A stretch of DNA of 64,000 bases from a bacterium (GTDB lineage: Bacteria; Patescibacteriota; Minisyncoccia; Minisyncoccales; JAGLPU01), in NCBI GenBank assembly GCA_030635055.1, contig DAOVZN010000002.1, positions 17,481-81,480 on the forward strand. Reading direction: 5' to 3'. The first letter of the stretch is position 1, and every line of letters begins with the position of its first letter. Positions 1-27,599 of the stretch are shown piece by piece. Below the pieces are notes generated by a model. The model saw only the letters and a program-made list of their open reading frames with translations, was not told the origin of the DNA and searched no databases. Both the position numbers and the translations under genes were made by a program.

Positions 1-465
1 TCTGAGAAATGCTCAGATCTGATTTATTGAATTTTATAATTAAGCCATCATTGTTGCCCTCCCCCTCCGACCATGTGTACCCAAGCGCATAAATATAATT
101 TCCGTCAACATAAACAGAAGTAAAATAATCATCACCGGTTCCTCCATAAACCTTTCTAGAGCTAATGCTCAAATCGGATTTGTTAAACTTCATAATTAGA
201 GCGTCGCTACCGCCTGTTCCTTCTGAAGCTGTACTCCCAACCGCATAAACATAATCACCGTCAACATAAACAGAAGTAAAAGAGTCAGCACCGGTTCCTC
301 CATAAATTTTTCTCTGAGAAATGCTCAGATCTAATTCATCAAATTTTATAATCAAAGCTTCTGTTCCGCCCTGCCCTTCTGAAGCTGTACTCCCAACCGC
401 ATAAACATAATTTCCGTCAACATAAACAGAAGAAAGAGTATCATCACCGGTTCCTCCATAAAGTT
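1..465 (-). repeat. 156-bp (52-aa) tandem coding repeat, beta-propeller-blade-like
   Basis: accggttcctccata recurs at 134, 290 and 446. Protein unit YGGTGxDxxxSVYVDGxYxYAxGxTxSEGxGxxxxLIxKFxxxDLSISxRK. Confidence 0.9.
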
Positions 466-3400
466 TCGAAAGGAGTTTATTTGCTTCTCCTCCATCATCA
501 TTCCTCCATCGATAATGAAGCTCATCAACATTGGGAACTCCTATTTCAGCATATTCTGAATAGACAAAAGTGCTGGTGGAATTGTTGTTGGTAAGACGCA
601 AACAATAACTGGTGGTGGCATGCTCTGTCATTCTGACCGCATATTCAAATTCAGTGTAATTGTCGCTAGGCAGAGAATGAGCCAGCGTCATATTATAATC
701 ATCTTCAATGCCATAGCCATCATACCAACTACCAACACCTGTTAAGTGACCCACAGTGGTACTGGCATTATTTACATAGTGAGTAGAATTAAACATTTCA
801 AAAGGACCAGAAGCGGTGCTGGTAGGAATAACGGAAAAACTACTGGCGGCGCAAGTGCCGTTTTTGGCCGCATATTCAAGCTGGTATTGATAATTAGTAG
901 CTGTTCCGCCGGTATTGGCAACCTCTATTCTCAAACGAACAGTGCTGCTGGCAGTCGTCACTAGTTCAGTGTTTTCAGCCGCCAGCCAGCCGTTGGTAGT
1001 AGTGCTTAAACTATCCAGATCCGCTCGCCAGCGGTAATAATTTTGAGTGAGAACAATTTCGTCTTCATTGTCATAAACAAAATAGGCATTCTGCATAACA
1101 TCATCACTGGCGGTCTCATGAGACTCCCAGGCGGCGTCCCAAGCAGAGCCGTTCCATTCAATGGTGGCAACATCATCCGTAACGCCAATCATGGTAAGCA
1201 TTATATTGTTTGAATGAGAATCAGAAGAAAGCTGATGCCAGTCAATGGCTTCCGGAGCGCTAGCAGACAATGTTTGTGGACTCCCCCAGCCGCTGGTGGT
1301 TGTCCATTCCCGATAAGTCGGCTGTGTCACTTCCAGGCCGTAAGTAAGAAGCGCGTTATAGCTATTACGCTCAAAACCCAGAGCAAAGCCTCTGCTGGCT
1401 TCGGTTACTCCGCCGATATCACCAGAAAGCTGGCTCTCGCTTCCCCAAGCGTCTCCGTCCCAACTATTCTGCTCCAAATCATCGTCATCATCCGCCACCA
1501 CAATAAGAATCTGATCGCTAGTGGGGTCGGGGTTAGCTTTCATTTCAATCCAAGTTTTTTCAGCAGTTGGAACTCCTCCTATAATATCGTTTAACACACT
1601 GAAATTTCCTGTTGACCTGGTCCAAAGATAGCCGTCTATGGCATGGTCTCCATCGGCGTAATGAGCCTCCACAAAATCTCCGGTATTGGACTCCCAAGCG
1701 CCATCAAAACTGAAACAGCCATCGCAAACTGAACAGTTATCATCTGTCTCCTGATAATGAGTAGTTGTGGTCCCGTCCCAAATCACAAGATGACAGTCAT
1801 CGGCCGTGTCATGCGCCATAACCGCAATGTAGTTTGTACCCGATTCTTTAACGCATCTGATCGTTGTCAACGGACCGCCGACATCCTGCAGAGTCTGTTC
1901 ATTTCCCCAGCTGCTTCCGCTCCATATCTTATAGCCAATGATACTTGTATTGCCGGCAGTCCGATAAAAGACCATAGCATCGCCGGACACCTGTTCATAA
2001 CAGACATCAAAAGAACGGTCGCCGGCAACTCCGCTGGCCGCCATTTCTTCCAAGTTTCCCCAGGAAGAACCATCCCAGACTTGGCAATTAGTAGTATCAT
2101 TAGAGTCCTTGGTGCATAAAACCTTTTCGTCGGAACTATTGCTGGGATGCGCCGCAACTTTTACCCACTCAATCGCGCCAGTCACATCTGAAGAGGTTGC
2201 TTCAGTAGCCCAGCCGTCAAGAGCATTGTGTGTTCTATACTCCGGAATTGAAGTGTCTCCTCCTCCCCGATAAACAAGCATATCCTCAACAGCCTCCGCA
2301 TCCGAAGCAATCTGCCACTGTCGAACTTCGCTGAACATTATAATATCGGACGAAGCATCTTCTCCATAGCTGAAAAAATCTCCAATTGCGTCTCCCGCTT
2401 TTTCAAATATGTTTTTCTCCTCTTCGTCGCCGCTGACAAGATCTTCGGCAGAATCGCTGTCAGTGGATTGATCTCCTCCAACTCTTAACGGACCCAATAA
2501 ATAAAGATAAGGGCTGATATCCGGCGCGTCAAATTGATACCGTAACTCATAAATCCCGCCTTCTCCCCATGCCACTTGCCAAATGATTTTTTTCATATTA
2601 TCTCGCATAGATATTCGCGCATTATCCGACTCCACGATCTTAAATCCAGTTGGAACTGTTTCTTTAATCTCACCGCTGAAATTTTCGCTGGCTTTTATTT
2701 TTAAAACCACTTCATAAGTCGCCGGAGGATAAATTCTGGTCGGTCCTATTCTTTCTATGTCAAAAGGAACCGACTCTCGAACTTCAAAGCGATCAATTAT
2801 TTCCGAGGAGGTATTTAGATTGGTTAATTCCATTTGATATGTCCCTGATTCGTTTGTTTGATAATAGGCAAAGTAATCAGGAACATTTGTCACATTGTTG
2901 CCTTTGCATTGGCCGCTATATTGAATAGTCCCATCTGCAGTGGATAAATTAGTTTCTGCCCCTGTTTCCAAATAAGTAATTTTTAAAGCCAAGTCAGCGT
3001 CGCAGATTGTATGCCCATTATCTTTTAAAACAGCCATTTGCAGATAAGCTTGTTCATTGGGAAGATAAATAGATTTATTGACATTGATAGCCAGCACTCC
3101 CCAGCCGAACTCCTGTTCAAATTCTTTCACTTCTCCATCCTCTTCAATCTTTAAAATTATTTCATAAAGTCCAGGCCTTCTTCCATTTTTTTCAAAAAAA
3201 TCAACCGGCAGTTTTACTGAAAACTCGCCATTGTTCTCAAATAAAATATCAGATGATATAGCTGAAATTTTTCCATGAGGGCCCCTAATCTCCACCTGAA
3301 CATTTATGCCATTCCAGTAATCAGTAATATTTAAAGCTTCCCCCAGCGAAGCAAGAAGACCTTTATTCATCTTTTTGTGCTTGAAACGAAATTCAGGAAT

Positions 3401-5552: not shown

Positions 5553-5580
5553 AAAAAAAACGAACCTATGTTCGTTTCTT
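5553..5580 (-). terminator. Intrinsic terminator of the 16S transcript
   Basis: Minus strand AAACGAAC-ATAG-GTTCGTTT followed by a T run, just beyond the 16S processing stem. Confidence 0.7.
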
Positions 5581-5699
5581 TGTTTTGTTTAGTTTTTTGA
5601 AGTTGCCCTAATAATCGAGATTTAAGACTCCTCGATCAACATCCTGCAGTTGAATTCAGAATTCTAAAATTCAACCGCAATCGACACTTTTCAAATAAA

Positions 5700-7185
5700 T
5701 GTAATGATCCATCGACAGGTTCCCCTACCGATGCCTTGTTACGACTTCACCCTTATTACTGGCTTTACCTTAGGTCCCGCCGAGGCGGGAACTTCGGGTA
5801 CTGTCAGCTCTCTTGGTGTGACGGGCGGTGAGTACAAGACTCAGGAACGTATTCATCGCCACATGGCTGATTGGCGATTACTAGCGATTCCAACTTCATG
5901 AGGTCGAATTGCAGACCTCAATCCGAACTGAGAGACCGTTTGGTGGGATTAGCTCCGCCTTGCGGCTTGGCAACCCATTGTCAGTCCCATTGTATCATGT
6001 GTGCAGCCCAAGGTATCAAAGGGCCATGCTGATTTGGCGTCATCCCCACCTTCCTCCCAATTGTCTCGGGCAGTCCTCCATGACATATAAAACATAGAGT
6101 AGGGGTTGCGCAGGTTTCCCCATTTAAGGGAGCGCTTCACAGCACCTGCTGACGACAACCATGCAGCACCTGGGTTAGTGCCTTGTGGGGGCCCTGCGTT
6201 TCTGCAGGGTTTCACTAACTTGTCAAACCTTGGTAAGGTTCCTCGCTTATCATCGAATTAAGCCACATGATCCACCGCTTGTGTGAGTCCCCGTCTATTT
6301 CTTTGAGTTTTAGCCTTGCGGCCGTACTTCCCAGGCGGGATACTTAACGCGTTAGCTTCGCCACTTGAAGGGTCGACACTTCAAATAGCTAGTATCCATC
6401 GTTTACGGCGTGGAATACAAGGGTATCTAATCCTTTTTTATGCCCACGCTTTCGTCTCTCAGCGTCAGGGTCGCCCCAGCTGAATGCCTTCGCTTTTGGT
6501 ATTCCGGTCGATATCAACGGATTTCACCCCTACACCGACCGTTCCATCAGCCTCTAGCGCCCTCTAGTTTAGAAGTTTTTTTGGCATTCCAAAAGTTGAG
6601 CTCTTAGTCTTTAACCAAAAACTTTCTAAACCGCCTACAGACTCTTTACGCCCAATAAATCCGGATAACGCTTGGGGTACTCGTATTACCGCTCCTGCTG
6701 GCACGAGTTTAGGAACCCCTTATTCAACCGGTACCGTCAATAATTTCTTCCCGGTTAAAAGAATTTTACACCCCGAAGGGCTTCTTCATCCACGCGATGT
6801 CGCTCCGTCAGGCTTTCGCCCATTGCGGAAGATTCTCGACTGCTGCCTCCCGTAGGAGTATGGTCCGTTCTCAATACCATTGTTGGGGAACACACTCTCA
6901 TGACCCCTACCCGTCATAGCCTTGGTAAGCCATTACCTTACCAACAAGCTGATAGGCCGCAACCTCTTCCAATACCGATTTGCATCTTTACCGAACACTC
7001 AGTAAACTAAATGTTCGGACCATCGGGAATTAGCCTAGATTTCTCTAAGTTATGCCCGTGTACTGGGTAGATAGTTACGTGTTACTAACCCGTTTGCCAC
7101 TCCCTGCCGAAACAGGGCGTTCGACTTGCATGCCTTATCCACATCGCCAGCGTTCATCCTGAGCCAGAATCAAACTCTCAAAAAA
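5700..7185 (-). rRNA. rrs: 16S rRNA, unlinked from 23S, no evident intron, lacking the anti-SD
   Basis: Minus strand AGAGTTTGATTCTGGCTCAG at 7178-7159, ACTCCTACGGGAGGCAGCAG, and AAGTCGTAACAAGG...GGATCA near 5705. About 1485 nt; ends are approximate. Confidence 0.98.
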
Positions 7186-22853: not shown

Positions 22854-22994
22854 ATGAAAAAGATTAAAAAGAAAACTATTTTTAGAATTATCTGGATTAT
22901 CTTAATATTTTTTGTAATCTTGGGAATGATTGGTTTTTTAATGATTGGCTTTATCTAGCTCAAAATTTTCAAATAGACATCGGGAGGAATTCTG
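22854..22994 (+). CDS. Small single-pass membrane protein (46 aa, below the ORF-track cutoff)
   Basis: MKKIKKKTIFRIIWIILIFFVILGMIGFLMIGLSSSKFSNRHREEF*. Candidate promoter TTGCGT-16-TATCAT lies 6 nt before the ATG. Confidence 0.6.
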
Positions 22995-24724
22995 ATCTTC
23001 CCTTTCGCTTTAAGCTCGGCCTTGCCTTTTTTTTGCTTTTCCAGTAGTTTATTCTTTCTGGTAACATCTCCTCCATACAAATAACCAGTAACATCTTTTC
23101 TCTTGGCGCTGATCGTTTCTCTGGCGATTACTTTTCCTCCCACTGCCGCTTGGACAGGAACCGCAAAAAGTTGATCAGGAATTAATTTCTTTAATTTTTT
23201 AACCATATCTCTGCCTTCTGGCAGAGCTTTTTCTTTAGGAACAATTCGAGCAAAGGATTCTTCTTTCTTTCCTAGAATCAAAATATCCAGCTTTACCAGT
23301 TCAACTTTTCTCCAGTCCAAAATATCATAGTTCATAGAAGCAAATCCCTGAGAAACGCTTTTCAGCTTATCATAAAAATTACGGTCTATTATTTCCCTTA
23401 AAGGAGCTTCCAATATTAGCTTTGCTTTACCCCCAACCCATTGAGTGTCTAAATATTTGGCGGAAATAAGCTTTGACAGCTCCAACACCTGACTGAGATA
23501 TTCTTGCGGGGTCAATATTTGAAGATTAACCCAAAGTTCAAAACTCTCTTTGATGGCCGAAGGATCCGGAAAATCTTGGGGAGTATAAACCAAGGTCTCC
23601 TTGTTATCTCCGGTAACCGCTTTATAAAGAATTGAAGGAGTGGACAAAACCAGGCTTAAATCAAATTCTCTTCTTATCCTCTCGGTTAAAATTTCAGCAT
23701 GTAGCAAACCTAAAAATCCGCACTGAAATCCACGACCCAGTCCTGTCTTCATTTCCGGCTTAAAATCAAAAGCGGCATCTGTAAGCTTTATCTTTTCCAG
23801 AGCTTCTTTTAAATTTTTGTGATCGTCGGTATCTTCCGGATAAATGCTAAGAAAAACCATTGGCTTTGATTCTTCGTATCCAAGCAAGGCCTCTTTAGCC
23901 GAATTAGTGATAGTGTCTCCTATTTTTACTTTGTCTGGCTGCTTTATCCCTGTAGCGATATAGCCTATTTCCCCGCACTTTAATTCTGAAGAAGGAGAAA
24001 GTTCTGGAATGAAAAATCCCACTTCTTTTACTTCTCCTTCTGTTTTTTCAGCCATTAAATAAATCTTTTCTCCGGTTTTAATTCTGCCGTCAACCGCTCT
24101 GACAAAAGCTGTCACTCCCTTATACGAATCATATTTAGAATCAAATATTAAGGCGCGGAAAGATTTATCTGAATTATCTGGTGGACCAGGAATCTTTTCC
24201 ACAACTGCTTTAAGAACTTCTTCAATATTAATACTATTTTTGGCTGATATCTTTATCACCTCGCTTTCTTCCACACCCAAAACATCAGCCAGTTCTTTAA
24301 TAGTTTCTTCCACCCTGGCATGGCTCAAATCAATTTTATTTATCACCGGAATAATCACCAAGTTTTGTTTCTGAGCCAGTTCTAAGTTAGCCAAAGTTTG
24401 AGCCTGGATTCCCTGACTGGCGTCAACCAATAAAACGGCTCCTTCCACCGCGGCCAAGGCTCGGGAAACTTCATAGCCAAAATCCACATGACCGGGAGTA
24501 TCTATCAAATTCAAAATATATGGCTGACCGTTGAAAACATAATTCAGCCGGATTGGCTGCATCTTTATGGTTATTCCTTTTTCTCTTTCCAAATCCATCA
24601 TATCCAGAAACTGTGGCTGCATCTTTCTCTTTTCAATAGCACTGGTCAATTCCAAGAACCGGTCAGCTAAAGTTGACTTGCCGTGATCAATATGACTAAT
24701 AATGCTGAAATTTCTAATCTTCAT
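22955..24724 (-). CDS. lepA: Elongation factor 4
   Basis: IRNFSIISHIDHGKSTLADR, DTPGHVDF, GFLGLLH, RKDVTGYLYGGDVTRK. Confidence 0.97.
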   Translation of the reverse strand: MKIRNFSIISHIDHGKSTLADRFLELTSAIEKRKMQPQFLDMMDLEREKGITIKMQPIRLNYVFNGQPYILNLIDTPGHVDFGYEVSRALAAVEGAVLLVDASQGIQAQTLANLELAQKQNLVIIPVINKIDLSHARVEETIKELADVLGVEESEVIKISAKNSINIEEVLKAVVEKIPGPPDNSDKSFRALIFDSKYDSYKGVTAFVRAVDGRIKTGEKIYLMAEKTEGEVKEVGFFIPELSPSSELKCGEIGYIATGIKQPDKVKIGDTITNSAKEALLGYEESKPMVFLSIYPEDTDDHKNLKEALEKIKLTDAAFDFKPEMKTGLGRGFQCGFLGLLHAEILTERIRREFDLSLVLSTPSILYKAVTGDNKETLVYTPQDFPDPSAIKESFELWVNLQILTPQEYLSQVLELSKLISAKYLDTQWVGGKAKLILEAPLREIIDRNFYDKLKSVSQGFASMNYDILDWRKVELVKLDILILGKKEESFARIVPKEKALPEGRDMVKKLKKLIPDQLFAVPVQAAVGGKVIARETISAKRKDVTGYLYGGDVTRKNKLLEKQKKGKAELKAKGKIRIPPDVYLKILS

Positions 24725-24737
24725 AAATAGAAATAGT

Positions 24738-24772
24738 TAAAATTTCGCAACGAAAGAATTTTGTAACCATCT
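24738..24772. repeat. Right-end remnant of the palindromic element, upstream of lepA
   Basis: taaaatttcgcaacgaaa...aaccatct matches the right end of copy 1 (~22428-22461). Confidence 0.7.
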
Positions 24773-24800
24773 TGTGCTATCTTTCTATCATTTTTTGCGT

Positions 24801-24832
24801 AAAAAAGAAATGAGCATTCTGAAAATGCTCAT
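24801..24832 (-). terminator. Intrinsic terminator of mini-cassette 1
   Basis: Minus strand ATGAGCATT-TTCAG-AATGCTCAT-TTCTTTTTT. Confidence 0.75.
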
Positions 24833-24837
24833 ATTAA

Positions 24838-25001
24838 TTATTCGTCGCTACCTGCCATTAACCATGCTATCCCAGAAACTAGAGCAACTGAGACAATTTC
24901 TTTCGCCTCTACGCCACCAGAAAGAACTGTGGCGACCATTAATGCCATGAGGAATGCGCAGCTCTATACAATATTGTGACTGTTGTGCTTATCACCTTCA
25001 C
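24838..25001 (-). pseudogene. Small hydrophobic ORF of mini-cassette 1, apparently frameshifted
   Basis: GTG at 25001 gives MKVISTTVTILYRA. Removing one GC from GCTGCGCATTC continues it as AFLMALMVATVLSGGVEAKEIVSVALVSGIAWLMAGSDE* (stop 24838-24840). Alternatively a 36-aa ORF starts at ATG 24948. Confidence 0.5.
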
Positions 25002-25090
25002 TTACCTCTTTTTCAAAGATCCATCAGCTTAACTAGTTTAGCTAAGCTTCTTTTAAAATTATAATAGCAGAATTTTGTTATTTGTCAAAA
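25001..25090 (-). promoter_or_regulatory. Cassette leader copy 1: -35/extended -10, hairpin, boxA-like motif, SD-like motif
   Basis: TTGACA-16-(TGC)TATTAT, then AGCTTAGCTA-AAC-TAGTTAAGCT, then GATCTTTGAAAA, AGAGGT and GTG. Confidence 0.7.
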
Positions 25091-25291
25091 AGAAAAAGCG
25101 CCATTGGCGCTATTATGTTTTTCTTTGGGATAAAACAATTTATCAATAATATCCACAGCAACAAATATCGTTATTACCAATATTCCTAAGCTAAATCTTT
25201 TGCACCAACTGATTGCGATATGAAGACATAGCCGAATTATAATTTCTGCAAATGTTATTATTGTCATTACTTTTGGAATTTTCATTTTCAC
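25085..25291 (-). CDS. Small hydrophobic hypothetical protein of mini-cassette 2
   Basis: 68-aa ORF with two hydrophobic stretches. A terminator-like AGCGCC-AAT-GGCGCT-TTTTCTTTT overlaps its last codons. Confidence 0.55.
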   Translation of the reverse strand: MKMKIPKVMTIITFAEIIIRLCLHIAISWCKRFSLGILVITIFVAVDIIDKLFYPKEKHNSANGAFSF

Positions 25292-25379
25292 CCACCTCTT
25301 TTTTAAAGATCACTAGTTTGGCTAATTTAACCAAACCTCTTTTACCACTACAATAGCAGGATTTCCTTATTTGTCAAAA
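25291..25379 (-). promoter_or_regulatory. Cassette leader copy 2
   Basis: TTGACA-16-(TGC)TATTGT, then GGTTTGGTTA-AAT-TAGCCAAACT, then GATCTTTAAAAA, AGAGGTG and GTG. Homologous to copy 1 about 290 bp away. Confidence 0.7.
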
Positions 25380-27019
25380 AATTGACTCCTAAATTCTCTA
25401 AAAATTGAAGTTTTGGCTGCTGCCAGCTCTGAAGATTTTAATAAAAAAGAAACAAAAAGATAAAATAACATCCCCAATGTTCCGGCAATTCCCGCTTGCA
25501 GGAATAAACCTAAAAAAGTTTTAGTGTCTAAAACTTCGGCAAAAATATAAAGAGAAACATAGGTTGTTGGAATCATAAAGACAGCAGCGATAATTATTTT
25601 GAAAAATGAATTAATAATCCGCTTAAGGTCAATATCGCCAATCTTTTTATAAAGAAAGATTAATAATAAAACAAACTGGCAAAGCATAATCAGAGTAAAA
25701 GCCAAAGGCAATCCAACTACCGCGATATCTTGAATTTCTTCCAGCTTTAAAATATCTCTCATGAAATTGCTGAACCAGTTGGAAAAACCTAATGAGGAAA
25801 CAAAAACAATGGAAAAAATAATATTTAAAAATATTGTCGCGACAGCAATAACGGTTGGGGTTTTAGTGTCTTGCAGGCTGAAAAACATCCGCAGAATAGT
25901 TGGGATTAAGGCCTGAGCAAAAATTCCCAGACAATATATTCCTAAGCAAGCCGCGGTCAATCTTGTTTCCAGCCAGCCAAATTCTCCTGTTCCCAATACG
26001 AGCCTGATAAACTGAGCTCTTAATATGAACATCAGCAAGCTTATTGGAACGACCCAAAAAAGAATTTGCCGGAAAATGGAAGAAAAACTGTTGATAAAAG
26101 CTTTTTTTTGATTGCTCGCCCAGGCTTTCGAAAGGAAAGGGAAAGAAACAGTGGCAAAAGAAATGCCAATCAGTCCAACAGGAAGATAGCGCAAATTATT
26201 AGCAAAATTAAAAACAGTCAATGAGCCAACAGCCAAGGTAGAAGCAATTATAGTGATAACAATAAAATTTATTTGGGAAGCTGCTGCTGCAATAGTACGC
26301 GGAATAGCCAATAAAAACATTTTTTTAACAGCCGGATATTTAAAATCAAAAAGCATCTTATACCTAAAACCGGACTTTATTGCCGAAGGTATTTGAATGA
26401 GCATATGGCAGAAAGCTCCCAAAACCACTCCCAAACTCACTCCTAAGATCCCCCACTGAGGAGCTAGAAACAAGATGCCGAAAATAATGCCAAGGTTATA
26501 GAAAATCGGAGCCAAAGAATAAGCCAGGAATCGATTAAAATAATGCAACACTCCGGAAAAAATAGAAGAAAGTCCCAAGAATAAAGGACTTAAAAACATT
26601 ATCCGCGTCAAAGTAGTCACCATAGCTTTATTCTCTGCAGTAAAACCGGGAACTAAATATTCAACTAACCAAGGAGCAAGAATAAAAAAAAGGCCCAAGA
26701 GAGAAAGGAGCAAGAATAAAAAGATATTCAGGACGTGATTCATCATGCGCCAGCTCTCCTCTTTATTTTTCAAATAATATTCAGAAAACAGAGGCAAAAA
26801 ACAAACCACGATGCTGCCAGTGAATAAAATATTATAAATCAAATCAGGAATTTGGAATGAAGCAAAATAAACATCAAGCTCGGTTCCCGCTCCAAAACGG
26901 CCGGCCAATAACCTGTCCCTTACTAACCCCAAAATTCGGCTTAGTAAAGTGGCTACCGCCAAAACTATGGCTGAAGCGGCGATAGTCTTCGTTTGAGAAT
27001 TTAAAAGTCGTTTTATCAT
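25367..27019 (-). CDS. murJ: Lipid II flippase MurJ (MviN)
   Basis: LLSRILGLVRDRLLAGRFG, FQIPD, LPVGLIGISF, FFSLQDTKTP. Start placed at MIKRLL (27019); the longer ORF-track start lies inside a repeat. Confidence 0.93.
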   Translation of the reverse strand: MIKRLLNSQTKTIAASAIVLAVATLLSRILGLVRDRLLAGRFGAGTELDVYFASFQIPDLIYNILFTGSIVVCFLPLFSEYYLKNKEESWRMMNHVLNIFLFLLLSLLGLFFILAPWLVEYLVPGFTAENKAMVTTLTRIMFLSPLFLGLSSIFSGVLHYFNRFLAYSLAPIFYNLGIIFGILFLAPQWGILGVSLGVVLGAFCHMLIQIPSAIKSGFRYKMLFDFKYPAVKKMFLLAIPRTIAAAASQINFIVITIIASTLAVGSLTVFNFANNLRYLPVGLIGISFATVSFPFLSKAWASNQKKAFINSFSSIFRQILFWVVPISLLMFILRAQFIRLVLGTGEFGWLETRLTAACLGIYCLGIFAQALIPTILRMFFSLQDTKTPTVIAVATIFLNIIFSIVFVSSLGFSNWFSNFMRDILKLEEIQDIAVVGLPLAFTLIMLCQFVLLLIFLYKKIGDIDLKRIINSFFKIIIAAVFMIPTTYVSLYIFAEVLDTKTFLGLFLQAGIAGTLGMLFYLFVSFLLKSSELAAAKTSIFREFRSQFFDK

Positions 27020-27023
27020 TTTG

Positions 27024-27201
27024 GTCAAATGCTTGCAAAACTTTTTCTGCTGCAATTTTATATTTCTAACTGCAACTTCGTCAAGCTGCCTAAAAAGATT
27101 TTGACCGTAGCTATTACTACGCTTCAAGCCTTTTTACTTGCTTTCCTCATTTTGCTTAAAAATCTAAAATCTAGCAACGAAAAATTTTACAACCATCTCA
27201 C
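27024..27201. repeat. ~178-bp imperfect palindromic element, copy 2
   Basis: Left end GTCAAATGCTTGCAAAACTTTTTC versus right end (reverse complement) GTGAGATGGTTGTAAAATTTTTC. Central hairpin CGTAG-TAATAG-CTACG. Confidence 0.8.
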
Positions 27202-27260: not shown

Positions 27261-27598
27261 GTTTTAGTAGGTTGGGTGATTGCCCCGTTTTGCGGGGAGG
27301 AAAGTCCGGACACCCCCTTTGATAAGGGAAGTAGGTAGTCGTTAATTGCGACCGAGAGTGATCTTAGGGAAAGTGCCACAGAGACTAAACAGCCAATCAA
27401 GTCAAGCTTCGCCCTAAAGGCAAAACTGATATTTGAGGCTAAGGTGAAAAGTAAGAAAATAAAATTTCTTTCGTCAGACGGTAACGTTTTGGCGTGGTAA
27501 ACCCTATCTGGTGCAAGAGCTTATGCTCGCTTAGATAGATAATCGCTAATCTTTCTACAAAGAAAGATACAAAATTCGGCTTATAGACCTACTAAAAC
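27261..27598 (+). ncRNA. rnpB: RNase P RNA
   Basis: GAGGAAAGTCCGGAC, GGAAAGTGCCACAGA, GGTAAACCC, ACAAAATTCGGCTTAT. P1 stem GTTTTAGTAGGT/ACCTACTAAAAC. Confidence 0.95.
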
Positions 27599-27599
27599 T

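Follow-up and report, generated by a model that had tools for sequence, protein, structure and literature searches.

The window analysed here is a stretch of 64,000 nucleotides (nt) from a bacterium of the order Minisyncoccales (assembly GCA_030635055.1, contig DAOVZN010000002.1, positions 17,481 to 81,480), and the spacer between its genes murJ and lepA holds two consecutive minus-strand units of about 290 nt each (hereafter units A and B), whose starts lie 289 nt apart (Table 1). In both of them a predicted promoter is followed by a leader hairpin, an element resembling the boxA of ribosomal RNA (rRNA) leaders, a Shine-Dalgarno (SD)-like motif, one or two short open reading frames (ORFs) and a terminator. 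A sequence-only reading of this stretch had presented them as a conserved expression module with interchangeable cargo, and all the elements that it described are present between the two genes. The observation itself is confirmed and is broader than first stated, and its interpretation is partly supported, none of the findings that the reading had named as refuting it having been made. Judging from the comparison of related leaders, the units are probably a real, selected leader RNA with interchangeable cargo (we put the probability at roughly 0.85), and the most likely role of that RNA would be the one of a Nus-type or structured regulatory leader placed beside the ribosome-binding site.

The -35 hexamer of unit A sits within the end of murJ, in its last codons and stop (TTT GAC AAA TAA), the stop codon of ORF A is the TGA contained in the TTGACA of unit B, and within unit B the TAA stop of ORF B1 overlaps the ATG of ORF B2 at 24939 (TAATG). 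The promoter elements of unit A are kept in all four close copies of the leader (i.e., three in the source genome of the window, G000, and one in its sister species, G001; G-numbers designate genomes of the same order), and a purine-rich stretch, AAAAGAGG in unit A and AAAAGAAG in unit B, lies between promoter and hairpin. The leaders of the two units are related by direct repeats (66 nt and 43 nt long, 77% identical and 289/290 nt apart), and the region contains 9 terminator-like sites, with 1.5 expected. The tandem arrangement is spanned without differences by contigs from four DNA runs, all of one study; two deviating joints of low support, 24835>25088 (X2 and X4) and 25146>25282 (X2), trace to a contig of 715 nt that shows 8 differences over 59 nt and probably derives from a relative, and they were not used. 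Positions 24600-25500 match no Rfam family (the best match reaches 23.2 bits, the threshold being 50), and the related loci match only tRNAs.

Table 1. Features of the murJ-lepA spacer and the 16S rRNA gene, with positions in the window.
Feature	Position	Strand	Description
murJ (lipid II flippase)	25367..27127	-	Pfam MurJ, E 3.5e-76
Unit A, predicted sigma-70 promoter	25350..25377	-	TTGACA at 25377-25372, 16-nt spacer, TG-extended TATTGT at 25355-25350; 10/12 hexamer matches
Unit A, leader hairpin	25315..25337	-	GGTTTGGTTA/TAGCCAAACT; 10 bp, AAT loop (RNAfold)
Unit A, boxA-like element	25301..25311	-	GATCTTTAAAA; 10/11 match to GYTCTTTAANA
Unit A, SD-like motif	25293..25299	-	AGAGGTG, 7 nt upstream of the ATG at 25285
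ORF A	25085..25291	-	68 aa from GTG at 25291 or 66 aa from ATG at 25285; two hydrophobic segments
Unit A, terminator	25087..25111	-	AGCGCCAATGGCGCT then a T-run; inside the 3' end of ORF A
Unit B, predicted sigma-70 promoter	25061..25088	-	TTGACA, 16-nt spacer, TG-extended TATTAT; 11/12 hexamer matches
Unit B, leader hairpin	25026..25048	-	AGCTTAGCTA/TAGTTAAGCT; 10 bp, 3-nt loop
Unit B, boxA-like element	25011..25021	-	GATCTTTGAAA
Unit B, SD-like motif	25004..25009	-	AGAGGT; from reading the sequence and the leader alignment
ORF B1 (putative)	24939..25001	-	20 aa from GTG at 25001 or 18 aa from GTG at 24995 (the start placed by alignment to the covariance model)
ORF B2 (putative)	24838..24948	-	36 aa, or 33 aa from ATG at 24939; one hydrophobic segment
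Unit B, terminator	24800..24832	-	ATGAGCATTTTCAGAATGCTCAT and a T-run
lepA	22955..24724	-	Pfam GTP_EFTU and LepA_C
16S rRNA gene	5697..7185	-	3' end GGATCATTACATTT, without CCUCC; sole 16S tail in the assembly

In full, the module runs from the promoter through an AAAGAG purine stretch, a 10-bp hairpin, GAUG, RUCUUURMAAA and a GAGGUG-type motif (5-8 nt past the boxA-like element and 7-9 nt before the start codon) to a short ORF and an intrinsic terminator, the ORF being fast-evolving or orphan and often encoding a small membrane protein. Starting from the two leaders, nhmmer finds a third copy in the source genome at C11:46809-46895 (E 3.6e-17; the next match has E 0.16), which is flanked by an inositol-monophosphatase (SuhB-like) gene and a downstream ORF of 399 aa, and which drives a protein of 134 aa, P0001. 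This C11 cassette has an ortholog in the sister species, with leaders 86% identical and cargo proteins 47% identical, and the mean column identity of the four close leaders is 85%. We scanned 151 genomes of the order with a covariance model built on the transcribed leader (R1), a kind of scan that the sequence-only reading had proposed, and strong matches appeared only in G000 (3), G001 (1), G089 (3, E<=7.5e-6) and G016 (1), with one additional match in G089 at 0.007. Among the 11 weak matches that were inspected, the one in G082 (L101), which belongs to a third family, shows a promoter, AAGAGAG, a hairpin and AATGATCTTTAAAAA, i.e., the same layout; eight others have no promoter or start context and resemble A/G-rich coding sequence, and the remaining two, L108 and L110, are gene starts led by an SD but lacking the layout of hairpin and boxA. 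With that single copy in G082, the module is found with non-homologous cargo in at least three families of the order. BLAST of the unit pair against 41 relatives gives, outside G000 and G001, just matches of 28-39 nt, and a pattern scan for promoter plus leader returned two stretches among genome contigs (the G001 record and a chance promoter), three among metagenome contigs (all unrelated promoters) and none among viral contigs. On this sequence comparison the two units are no private duplication, and their leader recurs beyond the window.

The hairpin, for which compensatory changes between the two units had already been claimed, covaries. All 40 of the 40 cells pair in the four close leaders, with three pairs changed on both sides, and three double compensatory changes separate the orthologous hairpins of G000 and G001 (AGTTTGGTTA/TAACCAAACT versus AGCTTAGCTA/TAGCTAAGCT). 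When ten leaders are aligned to the model, in an alignment fitted to its structure and thereby favouring pairing, 96% of cells pair and nine of the ten pairs are changed on both sides; such pairing was reached by none of 500 shuffles, and slid controls pair at 15-46%. Furthermore, G.U pairs in the hairpin occur on the sense strand only, which speaks for a structure of the RNA and not for a DNA operator. Conservation extends from structure to sequence at the hairpin top (CUAAAYUAG) and in the GAUG spacer, and RNAfold predicts, in four of four close copies, the 10-bp hairpin together with a second stem, AUCUUU:AGAGGU (z-scores -2.8 to -3.8).

Past the hairpin, the element was compared with the boxA consensus GYTCTTTAANA, which is gamma-proteobacterial and for which functional examples in 5' untranslated regions (UTRs) near the SD are described in the accessible part of Baniulyte et al. 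2017 (PMC5725501). Measured against this consensus of a distant phylum, the element matches at 10/11 positions in unit A, 9/11 in unit B and 10/11 in the C11 copy (GCTCCTTAAAA), and C4 and T6, critical in E. coli, are retained in the mRNA elements. It is kept in nine of the ten aligned leaders, so that its conservation, which had been in question with two copies, now extends to the further ones; in units A and B, the C11 copy and G001 it ends 14-16 nt upstream of the start codon, within the 50-nt limit, and a distant cargo homolog in G089 carries GCTCTTTGAAAA followed by GAGGTGG. GYTCTTTAANA occurs 22 times in G000, with 6.85 occurrences in local shuffles. In G000, 11 of 70 SD-like starts have a boxA-like element with at most one mismatch in the 70 nt preceding them, versus 16 of 649 other genes; in G089 the figures are 4 of 20 versus 6 of 281, and the sets include paralogous leaders. 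Relatives carry comparable elements in their 16S leaders: the one of G039 (GATCTTTAAAAA) is identical to that of unit A, and others are found in G031 and G011 (GAACTTTGAAAA), G030 (GATCTTTTAAAA) and G028 (GGACTTTAACAA). The resemblance to the local 16S leader that the sequence-only reading had noticed stands less firmly, as GTATTTTGAAA is there but differs at 4 of 11 positions from the element of unit A and at 3 from that of unit B.

Regarding the proteins, NusB (C19:59650-60039), whose presence had been named as a check, is found in G000, together with NusA, NusG and an Inositol_P (SuhB-like) protein. SuhB belongs to the Nus complex in E. coli. In G000 and in G001 alike, 7 nt separate the end of the SuhB-like gene (L006:708-1499, i.e., C11:46016-46807) from the -35 of the C11 cassette, an adjacency that may be meaningful or due to chance. 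Elsewhere, L011:500-690 (C19:53300-53490, plus strand) has a strong promoter, a hairpin, TGTTCTTTGAAAAC, about 120 nt and a terminator, with a 38-aa ORF only and no Rfam match; from its sequence, it may be a small RNA starting with a boxA-like element.

Taking these elements together, the hairpin and the boxA-like element could be the place where NusB/NusE load onto the RNA along with NusA, NusG and the SuhB-like protein, comparable to boxB-boxA in rRNA leaders. Because the site adjoins the ribosome-binding site, Nus occupancy would gate the translation of the cargo, and the competing UCUUU:AGAGG pairing could gate it likewise, so that the expression of accessory membrane proteins would be tied to the free Nus-factor and ribosome-synthesis state. 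Being near the expected 5' end of the transcript, the hairpin would probably also stabilise the mRNA. To the Nus-factor mechanism specifically we give somewhat less than an even chance.

A number of observations count against this reading, in whole or in its Nus part. Consensus position 2 is A or G in the elements and Y in the gamma-proteobacterial consensus, and some relaxed matches to the consensus in G000 are -35 TTGACA promoters. The own 16S-leader elements of G000 (GTATTTTGAAAA) and G089 (GTTATTTGAAAA) have no C at the position critical in E. coli, and hence rRNA and mRNA elements within one genome are not identical. One copy in G089 carries the module without the SD-like motif, and the weaker match at C5 of the same genome consists of hairpin and SD without boxA. 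The ORFs of unit B are too short to establish protein coding, and this cargo may be degenerate. A search of 41 genomes of the order, 32 of which are of high quality, did not find the Rho_RNA_bind domain (PF07497) in any of them, and its control matched 9 of 14 reference genomes; with no Rho found, the output that suhB has in E. coli through Rho termination cannot apply. Finally, the leader copies are related sequences and not independent samples, and since their alignment was moreover fitted to the structure, the covariation figures overstate independence; nonetheless, the covariation pattern in these sequences is still clear despite the fitting and the kinship.

The leader might also work purely as an RNA structure, with no Nus factor involved: the 5' hairpin would block 5'-end-dependent decay, and the weak UCUUU:AGAGG stem would tune translation or render it dependent on temperature or other conditions, in the manner of a fourU thermometer. 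The second stem beside the hairpin in all four close copies speaks for such a leader; the U-to-C change of the C11 copy converts a U.G into a C-G pair within it, and in several other leaders of G000 a CUCUUU is complementary to AAAGAG on both sides. However, G089, G016 and G082 keep the linear RUCUUURMAAA with a second stem of 3-4 bp or none, one copy of G089 keeps the U-rich tract without an SD-like motif as its partner, the second stem shows no covariation, and the Rfam thermometer families match far below threshold. Protein binding is ranked above pure RNA occlusion because the distant copies preserve the linear sequence but have a weak second stem or none. A purely structural leader is a possible, if rather unlikely, account. 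Doubtful to a greater degree is that hairpin and U-rich element bind another protein or a small RNA (e.g., a lineage-specific regulator, or an RNase at its entry site), the likeness to boxA being convergent between two U/A-rich elements. The sequence conservation of the hairpin top and the GAUG spacer would agree with a dedicated factor, as would the difference between the 16S-leader element of G000 and its mRNA element, and the region has no Rfam family; yet the neighbouring genes differ from copy to copy, with no candidate factor linked to them, and the match to boxA spans 9-10 of 11 positions and is common to the 16S leaders of relatives.

Turning to the cargo, the leader precedes a NUDIX hydrolase in G082, a repeat protein without significant Pfam match in both G089 and G016 and, in G089, a membrane protein with a zinc ribbon, a protein of the P0001 family and (behind a weaker match without boxA) a CBS-pair protein; on reading the sequence, a terminator-like hairpin follows each cargo gene of the distant copies. 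P0001 has two membrane segments at its N-terminus. ORF A has no Pfam match at E<=1 and, among 5.8 billion proteins, finds only itself; a word-index search with P0001 likewise returned P0001 alone, and a profile search returned three distant relatives, each about 130 aa in size, its four other matches being long proteins and judged noise. In these searches ORF A and P0001 are without close relatives outside their own lineage. Homology among the cargo ORFs, which the sequence-only reading had named as a refuting finding, was not seen either: Smith-Waterman scores among ORF A, B1, B2, the 48-aa ORF of G089 and the P0001 family all fall within those of shuffles, and a family hidden Markov model against the six-frame translation of the units gives E >= 0.19.

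The hydrophobic segments (two in ORF A, one in ORF B2), the strong promoter, the structured leader with a possibly occluded ribosome-binding site and a copy number that varies across species would fit type I toxin-antitoxin-like loci, in which the structure of the leader and an antisense RNA would repress the translation of a small, hydrophobic and toxic peptide. This is very improbable, nothing having been found in its support. No convincing antisense promoter-terminator pair was found in the units, the sole plus-strand candidate (25327-25354, 9/12 matches) facing away from the ORF without a matching terminator, and the Pfam search at E<=1 (the PADLOC library was not searched) gave no match. 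The leader also precedes NUDIX, zinc-ribbon and repeat proteins, and the module is therefore not toxin-specific.

The site of the units has a history of its own. Across 31 loci examined, murJ lies directly upstream of lepA in 25, and the gaps between the two genes measure -35 to 141 nt, save in G000 (646 nt) and G089 (1215 nt). In the sister species the spacer has no cassette and holds the murJ stop (...TTGACAAATAA), 32 nt and the terminator ATGAGCATTTTCAGGATGCTCAT, which is why the terminator of unit B is regarded as the counterpart of the murJ terminator of G001. The same unit B terminator is paralogous to that of the C11 cassette, with the similarity extending beyond it to ATGATAGA. The gap of G089 likewise holds two tandem cassettes. 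The first consists of a promoter, GGCTCTTTACAAA, a 48-aa ORF with two membrane segments and the terminator ATGAGCATTCAGCAGGATGCTCC, which resembles that of G000; the second contains a hairpin, CGCTCTTTGAAAA and CGAGGTGG, and then the P0001-family gene; and a 42-nt repeat of the murJ 3' end lies between them. Since the second cassette starts with a copy of the murJ end in both G000 and G089, we infer from these sequences that, in two families, a segment reaching from the end of murJ to the end of the cassette was duplicated in tandem at this spacer. Cassettes at the murJ-lepA site may be ancestral or may have arisen twice. Just upstream of murJ, on the opposite strand, lies the RNase P RNA (class A, 158 bits; window 27264-27599, plus strand).

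With regard to the SD-like motif, the 16S tail of the source genome has no CCUCC, and GGATCACCTCC is absent from the whole genome. CCTCC is kept by just one of the 24 16S tails read in the order, so that 23 are without it, and G089, G082 and G016 are also without it. Such a loss of the anti-SD is not novel, since it has already been published for a subgroup of Parcubacteria (PMC9297842, in its accessible part). As the sequence-only reading had it, the motif pairs poorly with the resident ribosome: the duplex of unit A has an energy of -13.2 kcal/mol with a canonical tail and of -4.8 with the resident one, the three leaders of G000 ranging from -3.1 to -4.8 kcal/mol with the latter. In contrast, the statement that these are the only clear SD-like starts does not survive at genome scale, given that GAGGTG-type motifs occur at about 4% of the long genes of G000. 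Upstream regions in this genome are A/T-rich (G amounts to 13-18% at -14 to -10), the most enriched upstream 5-mers are AGGTG, GGTGA and GAGGT, and GAGGT peaks at -12 (16 of 754 genes). Pairing with the canonical tail at <= -10 kcal/mol is found upstream of 6.9% of the genes of G000 versus 2.3-2.6% in controls, and in G089 of 7.0% versus 2.3-2.7%, where GAGGT is sharp near -12/-11 (9 and 5 of 301), with its peak at -11. Pairing with the resident tail shows no enrichment upstream of the genes of G000, and G031, also without anti-SD, has no SD-like start class and no match to the covariance model at E <= 0.01. Several of the SD-led orphan genes of G000 are missing in G001.

Further arrangements were seen in G000. 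In the comparison of L013:1514-1567 with L053 (the lipoprotein-like gene at C22:14064 and its ortholog in G001), GAGGTG stands opposite GGGGTG at equal distance to the ATG, the remaining leader having diverged. At C12:5100-7300 (minus strand) there is a tandem array of five small genes of 56-93 aa, with a TTGAC -35 upstream of four (in the 95 nt viewed), GGAGGTAG before the ATG in four and GAGGTGAT in one, and a terminator after two that have similar 3' ends. At window positions 1-510 (C24:17166-17990, minus strand) there is a repeat of about 156 nt with GGAGGAACCG, after which come hydrophobic frames that resemble one another and have some 30 aa (MLTEIMFMRLG...); by their look, these copies are tandem repeats within a large gene or next to it. 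ATGTCACACCTCTGTCA occurs twice within 31 nt at C1:47470-47530 (plus strand), near the contig end. As for the 16S gene, it stands alone, with no 23S in the 5.7 kb downstream (window 5560-5700, minus strand); a GTCGAyT..GGTTGAA element is conserved after its 3' end in many relatives, and the trailer and the 5' leader pair to form a processing stem.

The distribution of the motif also bears on whether the units might be a neutral relic, i.e., a promoter region that was recently duplicated in place and is now decaying, its SD-like motifs having been inherited from an ancestor with an anti-SD. The unit pair is absent from the sister species, the cargo of unit B looks degenerate and G031, itself without anti-SD, has lost its SD-like motifs, all of which a relic would explain; but the leader is conserved over three families while the cargo has diverged to 47% identity or beyond recognition, the hairpin has undergone compensatory changes, and ACATTT is common to the anti-SD-less tails across families, which suggests an old loss, despite which the GAGGT peak is still sharp in G000 and G089. 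A relic is accordingly a poor candidate. Poorer still, to the point of being barely conceivable, is the idea that these SD-led mRNAs are read by an anti-SD-bearing ribosome (that of a host, in whose support nothing was found, or one from an unassembled second 16S allele): the motifs do pair much more stably with a canonical tail (-13 kcal/mol) than with the resident one, but G000 has a single 16S tail, the near-complete assemblies of G089 and G082 have one 16S match each, no convincing other RNA with CACCTCY turned up in the genome (the matches are the antisense of SD sites and tRNAs), and we know of no mechanism for mRNA export.

The SD-like class retained in anti-SD-less lineages is the most surprising by-product of the analysis, and no explanation is offered for it beyond a tentative and rather improbable one. 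Some Rho-less, anti-SD-less Parcubacteria might keep the canonical SD through selection on a small set of promoter-led, boxA-bearing mRNAs, GAGGUG being recognised not by the 16S 3' end but in some other way, which would amount to an anti-SD-independent function of the SD. The motif could possibly be the third element of a Nus-type loading site made of hairpin, boxA and GAGGUG, or else a protein could deliver these mRNAs to the ribosome. In the literature consulted, we found no account linking the anti-SD with Patescibacteria and no relevant one on boxA in bacteria of the Candidate Phyla Radiation, the lone boxA text looking unrelated in its accessible part; in the accessible texts on the SD in Parcubacteria, supplements excluded, SD-led leaders of this kind are not described.

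What the module offers is a candidate RNA motif supported by covariation in a group (of the Candidate Phyla Radiation/Parcubacteria type) with almost no known gene regulation. Should the element prove to be a genuine boxA, ordinary mRNAs would be under the control of Nus factors in organisms without Rho, which would separate Nus function from the anti-termination of Rho. Moreover, G000 and G089 keep a sharply placed SD class with boxA-like leaders and G031 has lost that class, which together make a natural experiment on the SD without a pairing ribosome.

Several known systems share part of these features. Antitermination signals in the leaders of rRNA operons follow a boxB-boxA-boxC layout. 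The module resembles them in having a hairpin and then a boxA-like element shortly after a strong promoter, the 16S leader of G039 even carrying the element of unit A; unlike them, it drives short predicted ORFs ending in intrinsic terminators, and the own 16S leader of G000 has a diverged element with no adjacent hairpin. Other leaders are purely structural, such as the 5' stabiliser stem-loops of the ompA type and the fourU thermometers, with U-rich stems that occlude the SD. Shared with them are a stable hairpin near the 5' end and a U-rich tract able to pair with the purine-rich ribosome-binding site, but here the linear sequence of the tract is conserved also in copies with weak pairing or without an SD, and no Rfam match is obtained. 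Type I toxin-antitoxin loci have in common with the units the tiny hydrophobic ORFs, strong promoters, structured leaders and variable copy number; they differ from them in the antisense RNA gene, which was not found here, and in that the present leader also serves NUDIX and zinc-ribbon cargo. The 16S tails agree with those of Tsurumaki et al. 2022 (PMC9297842) in ending without CCUCC (23 of 24 here), whereas a retained class of canonical SD-like starts and its link with boxA leaders are not reported in the accessible part of that paper, supplements excluded. Nearest of all is the suhB 5' UTR of E. coli and Salmonella (PMC5725501, accessible part), with a boxA-type element less than 50 nt from the start codon and a few nt from the ribosome-binding site, and NusA, NusB, NusG and a SuhB-like gene are present here as in that system. 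The differences are that the element follows a covarying hairpin and has A or G at consensus position 2, that orphan membrane proteins and assorted cargo take the place of Nus and translation genes, in multiple and tandem copies, and that no Rho is detectable and Nus binding is predicted from sequence. The known kind to which the present module would belong, as a variant, is that of boxA-bearing mRNA leaders.

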